DNA of 7,640 nucleotides from a virus. Lineage: Duplodnaviria > Heunggongvirae > Uroviricota > Caudoviricetes. A model generated the notes under the pieces. The model saw only the letters and a program-made list of their open reading frames with translations, was not told where the DNA came from and searched no databases. The stretch lies in the IMG/VR virus record IMGVR_UViG_2778261354_000005; one strand, written 5' to 3'. Made by a program: the position numbers and the translations under genes. This document shows, in pieces, positions 1,275 to 7,523 of the stretch. How positions within the stretch are numbered: position 1 is the first letter of the stretch; every line of letters starts with the position of its first letter.

Positions 1275-1670
1275 TTACCGAGTTGCTAATTTGCAACTCG
1301 CTTTTTCGTACTTACTGATAGTGATCTCGACCTTCCCCTCCGGGATAACCGGTCCCCACTCCACCAGCATTCTTTTCACCTGTCTGTCGTCTTCCCACAC
1401 ACCCGCGTGGGTCAGGGCGTCAAACAGCGCCTTGTTATAGTTGTCCAGATCGCGGATCCGGTTATCCGGAGGAAACAACACGATCTCCACTGAAGCAGGT
1501 GCCGACGTTGGTTTCGGCAGACGACGTAACTGCTCAACTATTGCTGCACACGCCGCGCTCTGGAATTTTCGCCCCGCCGCGCTTATCAGGCTCTTACCAG
1601 CAAACGCCCCTTTGTTGGGGTGTCGCCAGTACGTGTTCACGCTGGGCGGAAAAGGCAGTATTAGCTTCAT
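1275..1670 (-). CDS. rusA: RusA-family Holliday junction resolvase
   Basis: 131 aa. N-terminal LPFPPSVNTYWR and the acidic catalytic motifs RDLDNYNKALFDALTHAGVWEDDRQV are typical of RusA. The ATG at 1668-1670 overlaps the upstream gene's stop (ATGA). Stop TAA at 1275-1277. Confidence 0.85.
   Translation of the reverse strand: MKLILPFPPSVNTYWRHPNKGAFAGKSLISAAGRKFQSAACAAIVEQLRRLPKPTSAPASVEIVLFPPDNRIRDLDNYNKALFDALTHAGVWEDDRQVKRMLVEWGPVIPEGKVEITISKYEKASCKLATR
1279..1306 (+). terminator. Plus-strand-oriented intrinsic terminator-like hairpin inside the 3' end of rusA
   Basis: Seen: 8-bp perfect stem cgagttgc (1279-1286) / gcaactcg (1293-1300), loop taattt, then c + TTTTT (1302-1306) on the plus strand. 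On the minus strand the hairpin is followed by GTAACGGAATTG, with no U-tract, so it is oriented to stop plus-strand transcription. Confidence 0.4.
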
Positions 1671-1993
1671 ACTTTCAGGCCCCTCTCATGTAACCAGTGG
1701 GCTGCACGCAGCCTGGCGTTTGCCTCACCGGCAAGCAGGGCGCGGATAATCCCGACCGCCTCGCTGTCGTCGTCCTTCACCGCGGTATGAAGAGTGATAC
1801 CCCGGGCCACGCCACGCTTTATCGTGATGACACCTTTTTTCTCCAGTGCGCGAAGATGCTCCACCGCTGCATTCACCGAACGGTATCCCAGCATGGTTGC
1901 CACCTCCTGATTGGTTGGCGGGAAGCCACGTTCTTTCTGATAAGAAATCAGCATATCCAGCACCTGCTGCTGGCATTGAGTTAATGTCGTCAT
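1667..1993 (-). CDS. LexA N-terminal DNA-binding-domain protein lacking the S24 autocleavage domain
   Basis: 108 aa. It aligns by eye to the E. coli LexA winged-HTH domain, including the recognition-helix region RSVNAAVEHLRALEKKGVI (LexA: RSPNAAEEHLKALARKGVI). There is no Ala-Gly cleavage site or Ser/Lys catalytic domain after it. ATGA overlaps at both ends (1990-1993 and 1667-1670). Confidence 0.75.
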   Translation of the reverse strand: MTTLTQCQQQVLDMLISYQKERGFPPTNQEVATMLGYRSVNAAVEHLRALEKKGVITIKRGVARGITLHTAVKDDDSEAVGIIRALLAGEANARLRAAHWLHERGLKV

Positions 1994-2737: not shown

Positions 2738-3733
2738 TCACCCCCTGAATCCTTCCGGGATCTGGCTGTAGTCCACGTTGTCGTAACTGGCTTTGAAGTA
2801 CGGGTCCTCGCGTCTGGCTGCAGATACCGCAGGAACTTCCCAGGATTCTTCGAAATGACGATCCGGACCAAAGAACGTCGACGCCTGCTTCACGAACTGG
2901 GTACCGGTATTTCCAGAGACACGCACCCAGGCGGCATAGCGTTTCACACCGTCGAGCATGGTTTCGGGTGTCACACCTTCCCTGATTCGGGCTTTCCAGG
3001 CTTTAAAAGCGGCGGATTTTGAATTACCACCAGCACGTTTGGGATATTCCTGCCAGGCCTGTTCAAATTCCGGTGAATATTCCTGTCTGGCAGAACGCGC
3101 TGGTGCAGACGCGTCAGCGGATGCGCCAATAGTGTTTTTAGTCTCCGTTGTAATCTCTGTAGTAATCTCTGTAGTAATCTCTGTATTTGTATCAACATTC
3201 GGCGTATCCCCTGTTCCGTTATGACGTCGGGGGGTGTTCCGTTTTAACGTAATAGCTGTATCGCTGATTGCATTATTGCTGTTACTTTCTGGCGAAACAG
3301 AAGAAGGTGTGGTGATGGCCGCAATTGCCTGTGGGTTGATCCCGACAAACAAAATATTGCTGCATTTCACCCCATCGAGCATTTCCACCGTGCGTAAATC
3401 CAGAGTAATAAACCCTGCATCGCGCAGACGCTTCAGCGCATCTGCGGTTTCCCTTTTCCCGAAACCAAACTGCTCAGCAAACGCCTGGTAGCTTCTTTGC
3501 AGTTTGTCGCCCTGAAAACGCTTGCGATATCCCAGCAACGCTCCGGTGTGCTCATCCCTGACCTCTGTCGGGCGGTACCAGTAAACGATCTCTGAAAGCA
3601 GAGCGATAGCCGTCGCATCCGGACGCCCACTGGGTAGTCTAATATATTTCCACCAGGTCGCAGGTGTAACATTGCCGGAAATATTAATTTGACCAATAGC
3701 CATAACTTCCGGTGTGGGGGCGTAACGGCTCAT
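2738..3733 (-). CDS. Putative phage replication initiation protein (O-like / replisome organizer)
   Basis: 331 aa. Assigned by position (after the immunity module, before the nin-like genes) and domain layout: an N-terminal putative DNA-binding region, a low-complexity linker containing the TEIT repeat, and a C-terminal domain. ATG at 3733 is preceded by AAGGAGGT. The exact family is not identified. Confidence 0.55.
   Translation of the reverse strand: MSRYAPTPEVMAIGQINISGNVTPATWWKYIRLPSGRPDATAIALLSEIVYWYRPTEVRDEHTGALLGYRKRFQGDKLQRSYQAFAEQFGFGKRETADALKRLRDAGFITLDLRTVEMLDGVKCSNILFVGINPQAIAAITTPSSVSPESNSNNAISDTAITLKRNTPRRHNGTGDTPNVDTNTEITTEITTEITTETKNTIGASADASAPARSARQEYSPEFEQAWQEYPKRAGGNSKSAAFKAWKARIREGVTPETMLDGVKRYAAWVRVSGNTGTQFVKQASTFFGPDRHFEESWEVPAVSAARREDPYFKASYDNVDYSQIPEGFRG
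3139..3186. repeat. Tandem 12-bp direct repeats (taatctctgtag x3 plus a degenerate fourth copy) inside the replication gene; candidate iterons
   Basis: Seen: 3151-3162, 3163-3174 and 3175-3186 are identical or 11/12, with a degenerate copy at 3139-3150. They encode TEITTEITTEIT in the linker. A 9-mer tgttccgtt also recurs at 3212-3220 and 3235-3243. Confidence 0.6.
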
Positions 3734-4029: not shown

Positions 4030-4250
4030 GCCACACCTCCCAGACGCTTAAACATTTTTCCGGAGCAAAAGGCTATAAGCGGCATACTGACGCGGTAATT
4101 ACGGCCCAGCGGTTCACAAACCACCTTCTGACATTCACGGTCAACCAGGCTAACACGTAGAACATGCCCAGCAGGCGTGGTGTACCACTGACCCGGACGA
4201 GGACAACGGAAAGTATGATTGGTAAACCGTTTGAAAATATTCCGGATCAT
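4026..4250 (-). CDS. Hypothetical small protein, 74 aa, 4 Cys
   Basis: ATG at 4248-4250 is preceded by AAGGGGG. ATGA overlap with the upstream ORF stop. No family recognised. Confidence 0.5.
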   Translation of the reverse strand: MIRNIFKRFTNHTFRCPRPGQWYTTPAGHVLRVSLVDRECQKVVCEPLGRNYRVSMPLIAFCSGKMFKRLGGVA

Positions 4251-5407
4251 TTGCGCCCCCTTACCTCTGAAGGGTTCAGCGACAAATTTATGAGACAGGC
4301 CAGCGCCGAAGCATCATTAATATAGTCATATAAGCTAACAGCCAGCGGAGATTCGGCTTTTGCCAACATAGGATAAAGCTGCTGCAGCCAGACCTGATGA
4401 ATTGATGAAATGTAGGAACAGAGAACGCTGGCGTTATGTGCAACGTCGCTCGGTACAGCGGGCTTTGAAAGCTGTTTCTCCATCTGGTTAAAGGCATTTA
4501 TGTATGCCTCTTTGAACCGGGCAGCACGTTTACCCGTGAAACCCATAGCAAGAAACGCAAAACCGTCTCGTGTGATTTGATAGCAAGGGAGCTTGCGTGT
4601 ACCACCGTTCGGTTGATTTACCGAAATCGATGTCTCCGCAAAATTGCGGGCACAAAACTCTGGGGAACAATCCAGAGTGCGGATCTTTTTCAGCACATCG
4701 TCGTGACGCTTGGAGAAGAAGTTGGCAACAGCCAAAGAAGTGGTAACGGCCTGGCCGTTGTCAATGGTGATTTCAGGTTGAGTGAGGGCTGGGATCGTAG
4801 CCATGATGGCAGCCTCCGTTGACAGTGAAAAACTTCCACCACCGGAAACGCCAATTTCACTGGTGGTGAACTGGACGGGGTTGGCGTAACCGGCGTCAAC
4901 GGAGACCGGCGCACCTTTCGGTGCCCCCGCCCAGCCCACCATAATCTGGATGTGAGCAAATGCGGACGATAAAAAAGACGCTGGCGCGTCATACATCGCC
5001 GTTGACAATTTCAGGACGCCAATCCCGGCACCCGCTTTATAAGGTGCCTGAGCAGTGTAACGTCCCGGAATTGCAGAATCAATATGCTGGTGGTCCTTCA
5101 CACTCAACAAAATCACGCCTGAATTTCCACAAAGGACTAAAGCACTCATGCGGGTAGTCTTTGCGAAGATAGATAACGCGCTGTGTTTCTGGCTCCCAAC
5201 GAATAACATGGACATAAAGCCCTCTTCCGTCACGAAACCAGCGGTTAAGTTCCTGCACAACTCGCCCCCCACAGTCAGGTAAAGTTCTCTGTGGTTACTT
5301 ACAGCCAGGTGATTTGGTAATCTGCATTCATGCCGTAACAACAGGTGTTCAGCGACGCTGACCACCAGCTGTTGCGACAAACGGTTATTTGCCGTTAAAC
5401 TATTCAT
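4247..5407 (-). CDS. Rha-family phage regulatory protein; Rha domain in the C-terminal 185 aa, with an in-frame 201-codon N-terminal extension of unknown function
   Basis: Residues about 212-310 match the Rha pattern (VTTSLAVANFFSKRHDDVLKKIR…YQITRDGFAFLAMGFTGKRAARFKEAYINAFNQME). An internal ATG at 4802-4804 (MATIPALTQPEITIDNGQAVTTS…) has GGAGG 8 nt upstream and would give a canonical 185-aa Rha. The frame nevertheless stays open for 201 codons upstream, to an ATG at 5407 that overlaps the CII-like stop (ATGA). Confidence 0.6.
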   Translation of the reverse strand: MNSLTANNRLSQQLVVSVAEHLLLRHECRLPNHLAVSNHRELYLTVGGELCRNLTAGFVTEEGFMSMLFVGSQKHSALSIFAKTTRMSALVLCGNSGVILLSVKDHQHIDSAIPGRYTAQAPYKAGAGIGVLKLSTAMYDAPASFLSSAFAHIQIMVGWAGAPKGAPVSVDAGYANPVQFTTSEIGVSGGGSFSLSTEAAIMATIPALTQPEITIDNGQAVTTSLAVANFFSKRHDDVLKKIRTLDCSPEFCARNFAETSISVNQPNGGTRKLPCYQITRDGFAFLAMGFTGKRAARFKEAYINAFNQMEKQLSKPAVPSDVAHNASVLCSYISSIHQVWLQQLYPMLAKAESPLAVSLYDYINDASALACLINLSLNPSEVRGRK

Positions 5408-5961
5408 GCGTTAGTTTCTCCACAACCAGAAGCAATCGACGCCACGACGCCCGGAGCTGCACACTCGCGGGCGTTACTATTTTCTGGAGCGCAGAAGATT
5501 TTGTAGACCAGTGCTGCATGCTCCTGGAGCTTCGAAATTGAAAGATACAGTTCGTCGTTAATTGCTGTCTTCTCATGCGGTTCCACTACACCGTCTTCGA
5601 TTGCTGAACGAATCTGTTTTGAATAACTGCCGATCTGTTCAATGACTTCCAGTAAACGCTGGTTAATATCGGCATTGTCCACATCCTCGACGTCAGGAAG
5701 AGACACAAAGACGCCATTTGCAGACTGCGCCACAGCGTCAGCAATGAAGTGAGTGCCACCAGCACGTTGTAAAATCATTGCCCATCCCAGCGGGAAAATC
5801 TGATCGCCATCGGCACGAAGGCGGTTAAATAATGCGTTCTCTGTTACATCCAGCCACTCAGCAGCTTCAGCGTAACCCTCCGGCAACGCCGCGATAGTTT
5901 TTCTGACAGCTTTCACGTACCACTCAGGCTGTTTTTCCACTTTCCAGTTATGATTACCCAC
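5404..5961 (-). CDS. CII-like early regulatory protein (tentatively the larger phage-186 CII type)
   Basis: 185 aa. GTG start at 5959-5961 has AGGAGG 6 nt upstream and overlaps the cro-like 3' end by 8 nt. The call rests mainly on position directly after cro; family membership is not verified. Confidence 0.5.
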   Translation of the reverse strand: MGNHNWKVEKQPEWYVKAVRKTIAALPEGYAEAAEWLDVTENALFNRLRADGDQIFPLGWAMILQRAGGTHFIADAVAQSANGVFVSLPDVEDVDNADINQRLLEVIEQIGSYSKQIRSAIEDGVVEPHEKTAINDELYLSISKLQEHAALVYKIFCAPENSNARECAAPGVVASIASGCGETNA

Positions 5962-6214
5962 GGCTTACCTCCTGTTCCTGTGGTTTAAACCCATTCTGGT
6001 TTTGGCTAGATTGAAAACGTGCCGGATAAAGAATCTGCATTTCGCTGATTTCACCCTTAAAAAAATTGGCCAGACGTTCTGCAAGATCGATAGATGGAAT
6101 TTGTTCCAGTCTTTCAATACGACTCAGCGTCGCTGGATTGACCTGAACGCCAGCAGCAACATGCTGCAAAGTAAATCCGTGCGTCTTACGCACATTCCGT
6201 AATGGTGATTGCAT
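5954..6214 (-). CDS. cro: Cro-like HTH (XRE-family) regulator
   Basis: 86 aa with an HTH signature (GFTLQHVAAGVQVNPATLSRIE). Transcribed divergently from the repressor gene. ATG at 6212-6214 is preceded by GGAGG. Confidence 0.8.
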   Translation of the reverse strand: MQSPLRNVRKTHGFTLQHVAAGVQVNPATLSRIERLEQIPSIDLAERLANFFKGEISEMQILYPARFQSSQNQNGFKPQEQEVSRG

Positions 6215-6311
6215 ATTACCTCCACATATTGCGTGATGAGCATATTATTTCACGCAAATATTTTGCGCAAGTTGATTTGCTTAACGCGCAATAAAGAAAT
6301 GTAATAAACGC
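6215..6311. promoter_or_regulatory. Divergent operator/promoter region between the CI-like and cro-like genes (OR-like)
   Basis: Seen: repeated TTGCG / CGCAA half-sites, for example TTGCGTGATGAGCAT 6229-6243, the palindrome CGCAAATATTTTGCG 6253-6267 and TTGCTTAACGCGCAA 6277-6291, starting 24 bp apart. Predicted minus-strand promoter for cro: -35 TTGCGC (6265-6270), -10 TAATAT (6242-6247). Predicted plus-strand promoter for the repressor: -35 TTGCTT (6277-6282), -10 TGTAAT (6300-6305), which would start transcription at about the ATG. Confidence 0.45.
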
Positions 6312-7004
6312 ATGAACATAGGAAACCGAGTCAGACAACTTCGCCAGGCGAAGAACATGAAAATCGCCGATCTCGCTGAAGCAATAGGAGTGGATGCGGC
6401 GAATATCTCACGCCTGGAAACAGGTAAGCAGAAACAATTCACTGAACAAGCCCTGAGTAATATTGCCAGGAGCTTAGGTGTTGATATTGCTGATCTCTTT
6501 ACCTCAGACGTCAAAAGTAATACTGTATTTAAAAACAGTATTAGTGAGGATGTTGCGCAGGTGAAGGATGTATTCCGTATTGAAATGCTGGATGTCAGTG
6601 CCAGTGCGGGAAATGGCCTTATCCAGGGCGGTGATGTCATTGATGTGATTCATGCCATTGAATACAGAACTGATAATGCTGTATCGATGTTTGGCGGACG
6701 GCCAGCCAATCACATTAAAGTTATCAACGTTCGTGGGGACAGTATGTGTCCAACCATTGAGCCAGGAGATCTCATCTTCGTTGATGTCAGTATCAATCAG
6801 TTTGATGGAGATGGTATCTATGTATTTGGTTTTGATGATAAAATTTATGTCAAACGACTGCAAATGATACCTGACAAACTACTGGTGATTTCTGATAACC
6901 AGATTTACCGTGAATGGGGAATTACCAGCGAAAATGAACACCGGTTTATGGTCTTTGGAAAGGTCTTAATCAGCCAGTCACAAACCCTTAAGCGACACAA
7001 TTAA
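6312..7004 (+). CDS. cI: CI-like prophage repressor, HTH-XRE + S24 (LexA-like) peptidase domain
   Basis: 230 aa. N-terminal HTH (RVRQLRQAKNMKIADLAEAIGVDAANISRLETGK) and C-terminal S24 motifs (VRGDSMCPTIEPGDLIFVD with the catalytic Ser, and KIYVKRLQ with the Lys). Stop TAA at 7002-7004. Confidence 0.9.
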   Translation: MNIGNRVRQLRQAKNMKIADLAEAIGVDAANISRLETGKQKQFTEQALSNIARSLGVDIADLFTSDVKSNTVFKNSISEDVAQVKDVFRIEMLDVSASAGNGLIQGGDVIDVIHAIEYRTDNAVSMFGGRPANHIKVINVRGDSMCPTIEPGDLIFVDVSINQFDGDGIYVFGFDDKIYVKRLQMIPDKLLVISDNQIYREWGITSENEHRFMVFGKVLISQSQTLKRHN

Positions 7005-7024: not shown

Positions 7025-7045
7025 AGCCACCCAAAGGTGGCTTTT
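7025..7045 (+). terminator. Intrinsic terminator for the repressor gene
   Basis: Seen: 7-bp stem agccacc (7025-7031) / ggtggct (7036-7042), loop caaa, then a T-run through 7045. It lies 21 bp after the repressor stop. Confidence 0.5.
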
Positions 7046-7059
7046 CATTACCCTTTAAA

Positions 7060-7112
7060 TTGCATATCTCGCAATAAAAACACTTGCATAATGCGCAACT
7101 TCATTTTATCTT
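7060..7112 (+). promoter_or_regulatory. Second operator-like repeat pair with a candidate outward promoter (OL/pL-like)
   Basis: Seen: TTGCATATCTCGCAA (7060-7074) and TTGCATAATGCGCAA (7084-7098), 12 of 15 identical and 24 bp apart, with the same TTGC…GCAA half-sites as the cI-cro intergenic region. Candidate plus-strand promoter: -35 TTGCAT (7084-7089), 17 bp, -10 TATCTT (7107-7112). Confidence 0.3.
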
Positions 7113-7523
7113 TCTTTCCAGACAAACAAACAAGGTACTAACAAAATTTGGTTGTAACACGGCGTATGGCACATGCGTCGTTAGCGGTCTGGGGACGTTA
7201 AAGGGGACAATCCACTCCTTGCTCGAGCAAACAAACCAGGTAGCCGGAATGTGCAAGTCAATGATGATGCTGATAAGACGCCTAACCAGCGTGGCGATTC
7301 GGTTTGACGCCTGGGAAGAGACCAGGGTGCAACGATGAGGGCATTTATGGAGCCGCGACAAAGTGTGGTGCTGTAACTGGCTAAGTGCTCTCAGCGTTGT
7401 GGTAATCCGCGAAATGGCGCGGCGGTAAGTATGGCGGGGTTACTCTTTCCCCGTTGAGGACACCGGATTGTCAGGTTGACCATACGCCTGAGTGACAACC
7501 CCACCACAACAGCCACTGCTTTG

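Follow-up and report, generated by a model that had tools for sequence, protein, structure and literature searches.

In phage lambda, the OR region consists of three 17-bp operators next to one another, with spacings of 24 and 23 bp, and OR2, which is centered at -42 of pRM, activates this promoter. The hexamer TAGATT of pRM lies 6 nt from the ATG of cI and the cI mRNA is leaderless. The operators of phages 434 and P22 are 14 bp (ACAA-N6-TTGT) and 18 bp long, respectively, with three tandem OR sites in each phage. In the lactococcal phage TP901-1, the operator OD is located inside the lytic-side gene and helps repression through a multi-site complex. The closest characterized homologue found for the repressor considered here is the CI of HK022 (X16093.1), with 44% identity over residues 19-228. 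The annotated HK022 operators are dyads of 15 bp in which a 5-bp center separates two 5-bp arms (TGAACTTATGGTTCA, TGAAC-N5-GTTCA). Searches of the literature on mEp460, on SfII operators and on leaderless prophage repressors found no characterization of the present switch, and the operators and promoters of the region were unannotated in the deposited records inspected.

The window, that is, the whole stretch of 7,640 nucleotides that was analyzed, comes from a prophage that is ~98% identical to phage mEp460 and is present in 1041 of 5426 complete E. coli genomes. A 97-bp intergenic control region (6215-6311) separates a CI-like repressor gene from a Cro-like gene. The repressor gene (6312-7004, plus strand) encodes 230 residues with an N-terminal 434-type helix-turn-helix (HTH) and a C-terminal S24 (LexA-like) peptidase domain; Pfam matches were to Peptidase_S24 (6.4e-19) and to HTH_3, HTH_26 and HTH_31 from residue 3-7, and the Ala-Gly, GDSM and KR motifs were visible in the translation. 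The best PDB match, a 434-repressor-derived domain (E = 2e-4), aligned with CI from residue 2, and the N-terminal 15 residues were kept across the relatives described below. The PDB sequence search was otherwise set aside, as it returned only generic XRE/434 and UmuD matches. An intrinsic terminator follows at 7025-7042 (plus strand); it is also annotated as a terminator in SfII, and the stem-loop and T-run are present in the relatives too. The cro-like gene (5954-6214, minus strand) encodes 86 residues matching HTH_3 (E = 3.8e-9), and its homologues in SfII, PhiR63_1 and Stx2a phages carry the Cro annotation. Its recognition helix, PATLSRIER, was kept in the relatives, as was CC..CC of its Shine-Dalgarno sequence, read as GGAGGT on the minus strand at 6218-6223. 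The downstream gene (5404-5961) encodes YmfL, a CII-like protein of the CP76 family, and cI, cro and cII are the annotated gene names in phages that are 92-99% identical.

The locus was compared with 14 relatives that have CI proteins 66-99% identical to that of the window and share the CI and Cro recognition helices. A further set of 80 IMG/VR loci, nearly all at least 99% identical, added little beyond the haplotype map. The pentamers TTGCG and CGCAA were strongly clustered, with five occurrences within 6229-6291 (63 bp), where 0.14 would be expected (Poisson P = 4e-7; about 5e-5 once corrected for window position). Symmetrized counts from the 14 relatives gave a 15-bp operator motif, TTGCG-N5-CGCAA, that occurs at four places in the window, as a perfect TTGC-N7-GCAA at 6277, 7060 and 7084 and, with a single position mismatched, at 6229. 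Across the complete mEp460 genome (44.5 kb), scores of at least 16 bits were reached at the four corresponding sites alone and the next best scored 12.7, although this ranking is partly circular because the four site classes that the matrix ranks at the top are those on which it was trained. The invariant columns of the alignment were exactly the dyad arms, the block TTGCGCAAGT, the TAAYAT positions, TGTAAT and the ATG, and substitutions in SfII fell in the N5-N7 centers of the dyads and spared the arms. Three other loci were tried and set aside: in the e14 ymfK-ymfT region, considered as a direct homologue, the layout is alike but the operators are GTAC-based and were no help in defining the motif, PhiR5_1 (CI 44% identical) has a different, unrelated dyad set, and the c2 region of ST160 has no TTGCG motif. 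A shared DNA specificity of CI and Cro is assumed here; the similarity of their recognition helices was judged by inspection only, because BLASTP gave no pairwise alignment of the CI HTH domain with Cro.

Two of the four sites lie between cI and cro. The operator next to cro (6229-6243, TTGCGTGATGAGCAT, 16.4 bits) reaches from about -8 to +7 on the predicted cro promoter; all 14 relatives keep TTGC and GCAT, the center is variable (four substitutions in SfII) and the score ranges from 12.8 to 20.5 bits at an unchanged position. The operator next to cI (6277-6291, TTGCTTAACGCGCAA, 18.7 bits) occupies the predicted cI promoter from -35 to -21; TTGC and CGCAA never change, the center is again variable, and all relatives score between 14.3 and 20.1 bits. 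The two share the form TTGC-N7-GCA(A/T), and their spacing is constant in 14/14 relatives, with the cro-side site at -34, the cI-side site at +14 and TGTAAT at +37 from the alignment anchor. It was also observed that the cI-proximal operator scores at least as well as the cro-proximal one. An OR region with two full operators 48 bp apart, flanking predicted back-to-back promoters, is well supported by the comparison. The initial annotation had described three operator-like elements, starting at 6229, 6253 and 6277, and had proposed a motif comparison across homologous immunity regions. That comparison recovered the 6229 and 6277 sites as conserved dyads with variable centers, but not the 6253 site, which is not the same element. 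All three were placed correctly, with TTGCG at 6229-6233, CGCAA at 6253-6257 and, at 6277-6281, TTGCT rather than TTGCG; further pentamers, TTGCG at 6263 and CGCAA at 6266 and 6287, fall outside the 24-bp scheme.

The other two sites are located just past the cI terminator. The OL-distal operator (7060-7074, TTGCATATCTCGCAA, 18.3 bits) is conserved with a variable center in the relatives, and the OL-proximal operator (7084-7098, TTGCATAATGCGCAA, 20.4 bits) overlaps the predicted early-left -35 hexamer, TTGCAT (7084-7089). The predicted -10 hexamer, TATCTT (7107-7112, plus strand), begins 17 bp after TTGCAT, and in 11 of 13 relatives TATCTT, TAATTT or TATCAT comes after the proximal dyad, behind a 17-bp spacer. 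The OL pair and the TTGCnn-17-TATCTT promoter were likewise kept past the cI terminator in 11 of 13 relatives. The OL-proximal site has the same geometry on the early-left promoter as the 6277-6291 operator has on the cI promoter. The two sites are spaced by 24 bp in the window and by 22-24 bp in the relatives. By motif, the closely spaced operator pair of this locus is in OL, downstream of cI, and not in OR.

The predicted -35 hexamers of OR are TTGCGC on the minus strand (6270 to 6265) for cro and TTGCTT on the plus strand (6277-6282) for cI. As had been proposed, they are back to back and only 6 bp apart, and both were found within invariant blocks. The predicted -10 hexamer of the pR-like cro promoter is TAATAT (6242-6247, minus strand), with a predicted start near 6235; TAAYAT was kept in every relative and was exactly 17 bp from the -35 in 14/14. 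The predicted -10 of the cI maintenance promoter, TGTAAT (6300-6305, plus strand), was invariant in the 14 relatives and kept a constant distance of 37 nt to the anchor. While the spacer sequences drift, neither the hexamers nor the spacings varied, which supports the earlier assignment of the region as a CI/Cro control region with divergent, back-to-back promoters. Both promoters were below the threshold of a consensus scanner, with 8/12 and 7/12 matches and 3/6 in each -35. The only promoter that the scanner reported, TCCACA-16-TATTAT on the plus strand at 6221-6248, was discarded, neither hexamer being conserved in the relatives.

The distance from TGTAAT to the cI ATG is 6 nt in 13 of the 14 relatives and 7 in one, and the intervening bases vary. 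There is no GG, GAG or AGG within the 20 nt preceding the ATG at 6312, and hence no Shine-Dalgarno sequence; cro, in contrast, has GGAGG. This is the lambda pRM-like geometry of the repressor promoter that had been predicted, and it held in silico. The cI mRNA would have its 5' end on the A of this start codon, or no more than 1 nt from it, and would consequently be leaderless. Two of the deposited records inspected place the cI start at an internal ATG.

Several features of a lambdoid switch were found at this locus, 1) a repressor with an HTH and a LexA-like S24 autocleavage domain is encoded divergently from a small Cro-type HTH protein, 2) intergenic dyad operators overlap both predicted divergent promoters and 3) a second cluster of operators with the same motif is located at the predicted early-left promoter. 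Judged from its sequence, the region is the CI/Cro immunity switch, of an ordinary kind, of a lambda-like E. coli prophage of the mEp460/SfII immunity type.

Given the gene identities, motif positions, conservation and spacings found, we consider it probable that CI recognizes TTGCG-N5-CGCAA at two OR operators 48 bp apart and at an OL pair, and that cI is expressed from a leaderless mRNA. We infer which protein binds each of the sites, which promoter each controls, where the transcripts start and how cI is translated. The CI-like repressor, and probably the Cro-like protein too, would bind the 15-bp dyad. Repressor bound at 6229-6243, over the -10 and start of the cro promoter, would turn off cro and the early-right genes. 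CI bound at 6277-6291, which covers the cI -35 and spacer, would turn off cI and so give negative autoregulation, and Cro bound at the same site would turn off cI and switch the phage to lysis. The cI promoter, TTGCTT-17 bp-TGTAAT, would produce the leaderless mRNA by starting on the A of the initiation codon (6312) or no more than 1 nt away. In the center, TTGCGCAAGT would serve as the -35 of the cro promoter and as one good operator half-site, the latter being part of a putative weak third operator (6256-6270) in several relatives, with a partner half that appears to have decayed in the window. At OL, the operators at 7060-7074 and 7084-7098 would cover the early-left promoter (TTGCAT, 17 bp, TATCTT). 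On the scores alone, a simple occupancy model would switch off cI before cro, which suggests that such a model is incomplete; what it lacks is probably cooperativity, a contribution from the intragenic site or from the half-site in the center, or looping between OL and OR.

If the site at 6256-6270 were functional in the window, as a weak operator dependent on cooperativity, OR would have three unevenly spaced operators, the additional one lying 27 bp from the cro-side site and 21 bp, or two helical turns, from the cI-side site and covering the cro -35. The position scores 8.8-14.3 bits, in the standard polarity, in six relatives (Klebsiella phages, Flotzy/Buttiauxella, C. amalonaticus and Pseudescherichia), where it reads TAGCGAATTGCGCAA, TAGCAAATTGCGCAA, TTACGACTTGCGCAA (Flotzy and Buttiauxella), TTGTGATTTGCGCAA and GTGAGTATTGCGCAA. 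Its right half, CGCAA at 6266-6270, is the strong half and is inside the longest invariant block, and its geometry mirrors that of the cI-side and OL-proximal operators, which cover -35 to -21. However, the window sequence, AAATATTTTGCGCAA, scores -3.0 bits with a left half of AAATA and only the right half intact; across the window lineage and the remaining relatives the range is -8.0 to 3.6 bits, and the relatives in which the site is likewise weak include those from Salmonella, K. spallanzanii and Trabulsiella. The block itself (6263-6272, TTGCGCAAGT), with 10 successive invariant columns over the 14 relatives the longest such run of the region, holds the predicted cro -35 and two overlapping operator half-sites. 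The invariance of TTGCGCAA could be explained by its role as a -35 alone, perhaps together with an overlapping site at 6263-6277 that is good only in C. amalonaticus (13.0 bits). We therefore regard an unevenly spaced set of three operators as unlikely. The 15-mer at 6263-6277 was also tried as an OR2 centered at -42 of the cI promoter and was rejected, scoring -1.9 bits in the window. No operator was found in the window near -42 of the cI promoter (6270 if +1 is 6312), the position needed for positive autoregulation, nor were three operators of the same polarity at helical-repeat spacing found in OR, which has two full sites only.

A candidate for an additional operator was found within codons 8-12 of cro (6179-6193, GTGCGTCTTACGCAC). 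At 10.6 bits it is the weakest of the five dyads. Besides the start codon, its TGCG and CGCA are the sole invariant columns in the first 14 cro codons of the 14 relatives. The Flotzy version is a perfect dyad, TTGCGATTTTCGCAA, with 17.7 bits, and the Thr/Ala/Ser codon within the dyad is always xCG. Synonymous recoding reached the observed score with P = 0.005-0.10, depending on the lineage. The conserved dyad may add to repression. It could also belong to a dispersed OR, in which the two operators 48 bp apart, a cro-embedded operator maintained by selection a further 50 bp away, the invariant palindromic half-site pair TTGCGCAA on the cro -35 and the OL pair about 800 bp away would give stable repression through a higher-order or looped complex rather than by cooperativity between adjacent sites, and the outward-facing CGCAA-N5-TTGCG would have a role of its own in the E. 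coli lineage. We offer this arrangement only tentatively and doubt that it applies.

The initial annotation had taken the elements at 6229, 6253 and 6277 as a tandem triplet like lambda OR1-OR2-OR3. On such a model the sites would act by pairwise cooperativity, with the middle element repressing cro and stimulating cI. The 24-bp spacing is real and the middle element (6253-6267, CGCAAATATTTTGCG) is a perfect 6+6 palindrome, CGCAAA-TAT-TTTGCG, in the spacer of the cro promoter, where OR2 of HK022 sits, 24 bp from OR1. Moreover, among 20 close haplotypes the arms of the middle dyad were fixed and the center was changed in SfII, two Citrobacter relatives and L081. However, its half-sites face outward (CGCAA-N5-TTGCG), while the four strong sites read TTGCG-N5-CGCAA, so that the operator matrix gave it -35.8 bits compared with +16.4 at 6229 and +18.7 at 6277. 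The CGCAA half at 6253-6257 occurs only in the subgroup with at least 93% CI identity and is absent in all relatives with CI identity of 83% or less (Salmonella, Klebsiella, Flotzy, C. amalonaticus, Pseudescherichia, K. spallanzanii and Trabulsiella), despite the same recognition helices and other operators. The invariance of the arms (5-6 bases) within the close group was not significant, being expected by chance about 15% of the time (P about 0.15, with 6 of 19 local positions varying). The center of the middle element, at about -52 from the cI start, is also too far upstream for a lambda-type contact with sigma region 4. The triplet is not supported at its middle member, with its reversed polarity and limited conservation, and we consider it very unlikely; the middle dyad may have a lineage-specific function in the close E. 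coli/Shigella/Citrobacter group.

An 8-bp inverted repeat, TTGCGTGA-N13-TCACGCAA (6229-6257), with half-sites two helical turns apart, might instead be the site of another regulator such as YmfL, whose gene matches Pfam Phage_CP76; phage 186 CII, of the CP76 family, binds half-sites 20 bp apart center to center. This reading is highly improbable, for although the 8-nt arms are 100% complementary and two compensating changes in C. braakii (TTGCGTCA ... TGACGCAA) preserve a perfect 8-bp repeat, the repeat is broken beyond the TTGCG core in SfII and Citrobacter FP75, the more distant relatives all lack the right arm, the left arm needs no other explanation than as half of the conserved operator at 6229-6243, and the place to expect an establishment promoter is downstream of cro, as for HK022 pE, and not within OR.

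The probable arrangement remains two OR operators, an OL pair and a leaderless cI. The immunity type is carried by about one fifth of complete E. coli genomes and also occurs in the serotype-converting Shigella phage SfII and in several Stx2-converting phages, so the switch would contribute to the stability of the prophage and, in Stx phages, to the induction of the toxin. The defined motif TTGCG-N5-CGCAA, the predicted promoter map and the corrected cI start codon would together provide a basis for predicting homo- and heteroimmunity, for the design of reporter or induction assays and for the correction of annotations.

Among known switches, that of TP901-1 resembles the present one in that OD occupies a place similar to that of the candidate at 6179-6193, which is inside the first cro codons and past the lytic promoter. 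The repressor of TP901-1, unrelated in sequence to the window CI, is not S24-cleavable. The cryptic prophage e14 of E. coli K-12 (ymfK-ymfT-ymfL) has, like the window, an S24 repressor, a small divergent HTH protein and YmfL, dyad operators both in the intergenic region and right after the repressor terminator, and a -10-like TTTAAT 6 nt ahead of the repressor ATG. Its operators, however, are built on GTAC (TTGTACC...GGTACAA), and its repressor and Cro are of a different immunity type.

The window CI and Cro are both HTH_3 proteins, as in the 434/P22 systems, and the DNA-binding domain is of the XRE/434 type, as in 434; the window CI has 42% identity to the C2 repressor of ST160, a Salmonella phage of the P22 genus, Lederbergvirus. 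The operators of 434 and P22 also have conserved outer bases and a variable center, but differ from those of the window in length, sequence and number.

Lambda shares with the window the divergent repressor and cro genes, back-to-back promoters, operators over both, a second cluster at the early-left promoter and a repressor with a LexA-like S24 cleavage domain, and the predicted cI -10 is at the same distance from the ATG as in pRM. The window differs in that there is support for just two full 15-bp operators, at a spacing of 48 bp and neither placed for class II activation, and in that its HTH domain is of the 434/XRE five-helix type.

The operators of HK022 have the same 5-5-5 geometry, over 15 bp, as the window motif. 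In both phages cI and cro are divergent, one operator is just downstream of the pR -10 and two OL operators 24 bp apart directly follow cI, the HK022 pair overlapping pL. The half-sites are TGAAC in HK022 and TTGCG in the window, and the two would therefore be heteroimmune. In HK022, an OR2 of standard polarity is annotated within the pR spacer, at 24 bp from OR1, together with an OR3 that covers the start codon of cI; the spacer in the window is without a standard-polarity site, and its cI-side operator is on the -35 of the predicted cI promoter. HK022 uses Nun, while the phage group of the window has no annotated N or Nun. HK022 is the closest known system, and in concept the locus varies the lambda/HK022 theme once more without introducing a new principle.

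The window corresponds to a lambdoid prophage early region, and its genes were called by ORF listing and Pfam scans. A CI-like repressor of 230 aa, with an XRE/434-type HTH and an S24 peptidase domain, was encoded on the plus strand (6312-7004), divergent from an 86-aa Cro-like HTH protein on the minus strand (5954-6214). The minus-strand genes that followed cro encoded YmfL/CP76 'CII-like', Ash/Rha and O-like replication proteins, then Dam, a LexA-DNA-binding-domain protein, RusA and a KilA-N protein. The region 6215-6311 coincided exactly with the cro-cI intergenic region, and the initial reading of what kind of element it is was right. The segment 5950-7010 was carried by 1041 of the 5426 complete E. 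coli genomes. Its identity was 98.1% with phage mEp460, 92.6% with Shigella phage SfII and between 96.6% and 98.6% with several PhiR and Stx2-converting phages.

Several other features of the early region were observed. The LexA-like protein (1667-1993, minus strand, 108 aa) consisted of the LexA DNA-binding domain alone (Pfam E = 2.9e-19), without the S24 cleavage domain, and was kept in SfII and mEp460. A tandem repeat of a 12-bp unit (3142-3185, 3.7 copies) within the O-like replication gene (2738-3733) encoded TEITTEITTEITTE and, by analogy with lambda O, may represent origin iterons. Rfam matched a C4 antisense RNA (4859-4946, minus strand, 81.4 bits, E = 2.4e-15) and the Hfq-binding sRNA isrK (4971-5047, minus strand, 62.2 bits), both within the 5' third of a long ORF at 4247-5407. 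The Ash and Rha domains of this ORF began only at residue 117; the actual Ash/Rha gene probably does not span the whole ORF and has a P1-immI-like c4/isrK RNA control element ahead of it.

Conservation was read from an alignment of 14 sequences that included distant relatives (CI 66-93% identical) from Salmonella, Klebsiella, Citrobacter, Pseudescherichia, Trabulsiella and Buttiauxella, among them phages Flotzy and Eeyore. The distant relatives retained the CI recognition helix D[AGS]AN[IV]SR[LV]ETGKQK, and the Cro helix P/Q-A-T/N-LSR-I/V-ER was the same in the seven lineages inspected. The elements invariant in all 14 were 1) TGCG...CGCA within cro (6180-6183, 6189-6192), 2) TTGC...GCAT (6229-6232, 6240-6243), 3) TTA (6245-6247), 4) TTGCGCAAGT (6263-6272), 5) TTGC...CGCAA (6277-6280, 6287-6291) and 6) TGTAAT (6300-6305) with ATGA (6312-6315).

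The predicted cro promoter on the minus strand had a -35 TTGCGC (6270 to 6265), a 17-bp spacer and a -10 TAATAT (6247 to 6242), with a transcript start near 6235 followed by GGAGG (6223 to 6219) and the ATG at 6214. The predicted cI promoter on the plus strand consisted of TTGCTT (6277-6282), a 17-bp spacer and TGTAAT (6300-6305), and its +1 would be the A of the ATG at 6312. The back-to-back -35 hexamers, 6 bp apart, proposed initially were upheld; the hexamers were invariant or nearly so and the spacers had the same length in 14/14 relatives while varying in sequence. Both promoters were weak by consensus, with 8/12 and 7/12 matches, and a consensus promoter scanner missed them; its single hit was not conserved in relatives and was dropped.

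The suggestion that the cI mRNA is leaderless is probably right and is a well-founded prediction: the 6-nt distance from TGTAAT to the ATG was fixed in 13/14 sequences, with variable sequence, and no Shine-Dalgarno-like GG, GAG or AGG occurred in the 20 nt ahead of the ATG. The mEp460 and Stx2a_1447 records begin the repressor gene 45 nt downstream at an internal ATG (6357, 215 aa), and the SfII and RefSeq records have the 230-aa start. By sequence comparison, ATG 6312 is the true start, because alignments to the HTH profiles and to a 434-type domain start at residues 2-7 and conservation covers the N-terminal 15 residues; the 6357 start would delete helix 1 of the HTH. Gene callers were probably misled by the absent Shine-Dalgarno of a leaderless gene.

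The clustering of TTGCG/CGCAA is real. Five copies, TTGCG at 6229 and 6263 (plus) and CGCAA at 6253-6257, 6266-6270 and 6287-6291, lay within 63 bp, whereas the rest of the window predicts 0.14 (Poisson P = 4e-7; ~5e-5 once window placement is allowed for). The initially proposed 15-mers at 6229, 6253 and 6277 were unlike one another, and the 6277 element starts TTGCT rather than TTGCG. The 24-bp series takes three copies and leaves out the palindrome TTGCGCAA at 6263-6270. The cro-side TTGCGTGATGAGCAT (6229-6243) and the cI-side TTGCTTAACGCGCAA (6277-6291) had the common form TTGC...GCA(A/T), and in the middle 15-mer CGCAAATATTTTGCG (6253-6267) the pentamers point outwards. A search of the window for TTGC-N7-GCAA found perfect copies at 6277, 7060 and 7084 and one in coding sequence at 1720, with one mismatch at 6229. 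The substitutions between SfII and the window hit the operator centres (TGATGA to CGTTAT in the first site, AACG to ATCA in the second), leaving the arms intact. The symmetrised matrix from the intergenic and left operator (OL) sites was TTGCG-N5-CGCAA, and in the 44.5-kb mEp460 genome only the two right operator (OR) and two OL sites exceeded 16 bits (next best 12.7), a ranking that is partly circular as the matrix was trained on the same site classes. A weak operator-like 15-mer, ATGTAATAAACGCAT (6299-6313, 4.7 bits), overlapped both the start codon and the -10 of cI. The CGCATG part of this 15-mer was held in most, not all, relatives, and its placement recalls a site annotated over the cI start in HK022.

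A lambda-like 24-bp tandem triplet in OR was not supported. The middle site scored -35.8 bits, and its CGCAA half was confined to relatives with CI at least 93% identical (E. coli, Shigella, C. braakii and Citrobacter FP75), all others having unrelated sequence in its place. The motif comparison across homologous regions sustained the arms of 6229-6243 and 6277-6291 in all 14, but not the middle CGCAA. Among 20 close haplotypes the middle-dyad arms were unchanged and the centre differed in SfII, the two Citrobacter relatives and the collected locus L081; this invariance is not evidence, because 6/19 local positions were variable and 5-6 invariant bases are expected ~15% of the time. The distance from the first operator to TTGCGCAA was 19 bp in 14/14 relatives. 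Six relatives had a moderate standard-polarity site three bases rightward (equivalent of 6256-6270, 8.8-14.3 bits), its strong half being the invariant CGCAA at 6266-6270; the window 15-mer scored -3.0 bits. The window OR would therefore comprise two putative full operators and one conserved central half-site. A perfect 8-bp inverted repeat, TTGCGTGA ... TCACGCAA, was also noted at 6229-6236/6250-6257; it stays perfect in C. braakii via a double, compensating change (TTGCGTCA ... TGACGCAA) and is not kept in SfII and Citrobacter FP75.

The position after the cI terminator is the place for a lambdoid OL and early-left promoter. Directly after this terminator (7025-7042) lay 7060-7074 and 7084-7098, putative sites forming a genuine tandem operator pair whose spacing, 24 bp in the window, ranges from 22 to 24 bp among relatives. 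The OL-proximal site overlies -35 to -21 of the predicted early-left promoter (TTGCAT-17-TATCTT), as the cI-side site does on the cI promoter. The leader 3' of OL (7130-7200 and relatives) contained a segment that otherwise different immunity types have in common, e.g. GCGAACAGGCAGGACGCCCACGAAGTAGCC in e14, the Salmonella relatives and Flotzy; Rfam at the gathering threshold gave no match in 7130-7200.

A candidate extra dyad, GTGCGTCTTACGCAC (6179-6193, 10.6 bits), occupied cro codons 8-12. Apart from the start codon, only its TGCG and CGCA showed no variation within cro codons 1-14, and in Flotzy the dyad was perfect (TTGCGATTTTCGCAA, 17.7 bits). The fourth-codon residue was Thr, Ala or Ser across lineages, the codon always xCG. 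Random synonymous recoding attained the observed score with P 0.005-0.10 per lineage, the lineages not being independent, which is suggestive, not conclusive.

In the proposed mechanism, CI bound at the cro-side operator, which would lie over the cro promoter from ~-8 to +7, would block lytic transcription. The cI-side operator would lie over the cI promoter from -35 to -21, allowing negative autoregulation by CI and cI shut-off by Cro. Binding in the latter geometry is expected to be repressive because a lysogen has to keep the early-left promoter off; the cI-side site, having the same geometry as the OL-proximal site, would likewise mediate repression of cI. By matrix score, no operator in the window had its centre close to position -42 relative to the predicted cI start, so lambda-type positive autoregulation is not predicted. 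A weak point is that the cI-side site scored at least as well as the cro-side site, so a simple model would silence cI before cro. The mechanism therefore probably includes cooperative assistance to the cro-side site, with the central half-site, the intragenic dyad or OL as possible sources.

The region 6215-6311 is a real immunity control region whose parts form a coherent functional whole, and it belongs to a very common type of prophage. A literature search found no description of the operators or transcript starts of this immunity type, nor were these annotated in the phage records inspected; the switch is a previously uncharacterised example of the well-known CI/Cro immunity regions. It shares with lambda the common logic and a predicted leaderless layout like that of pRM, the repressor maintenance promoter, in which the -10 hexamer is followed by 6 nt and ATG, but lacks the 17-bp tripartite OR. 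In E. coli K-12, prophage e14 shares the gene order and layout, with GTAC-based operators: GTAC dyads, e.g. CTTGTACCTTAACGGTACAAG, occur between ymfK and ymfT and just after the ymfK terminator (5935-6024 and 5090-5260 of the e14 locus, L005), and TTTAAT 6 nt ahead of the ymfK ATG gives a possibly leaderless geometry with a different specificity. The closest characterised relative found was HK022 (CI 44% identical), whose GenBank record annotates 15-bp potential repressor sites, TGAACTTATGGTTCA, with the same 5-5-5 geometry. The first lies immediately past the pR -10, a second lies 24 bp from it within the pR spacer and a third covers the cI start, and an OL pair 24 bp apart follows cI. The operator geometry, first site and OL pair are common to both, whereas the window has another half-site sequence and no standard-polarity spacer site.
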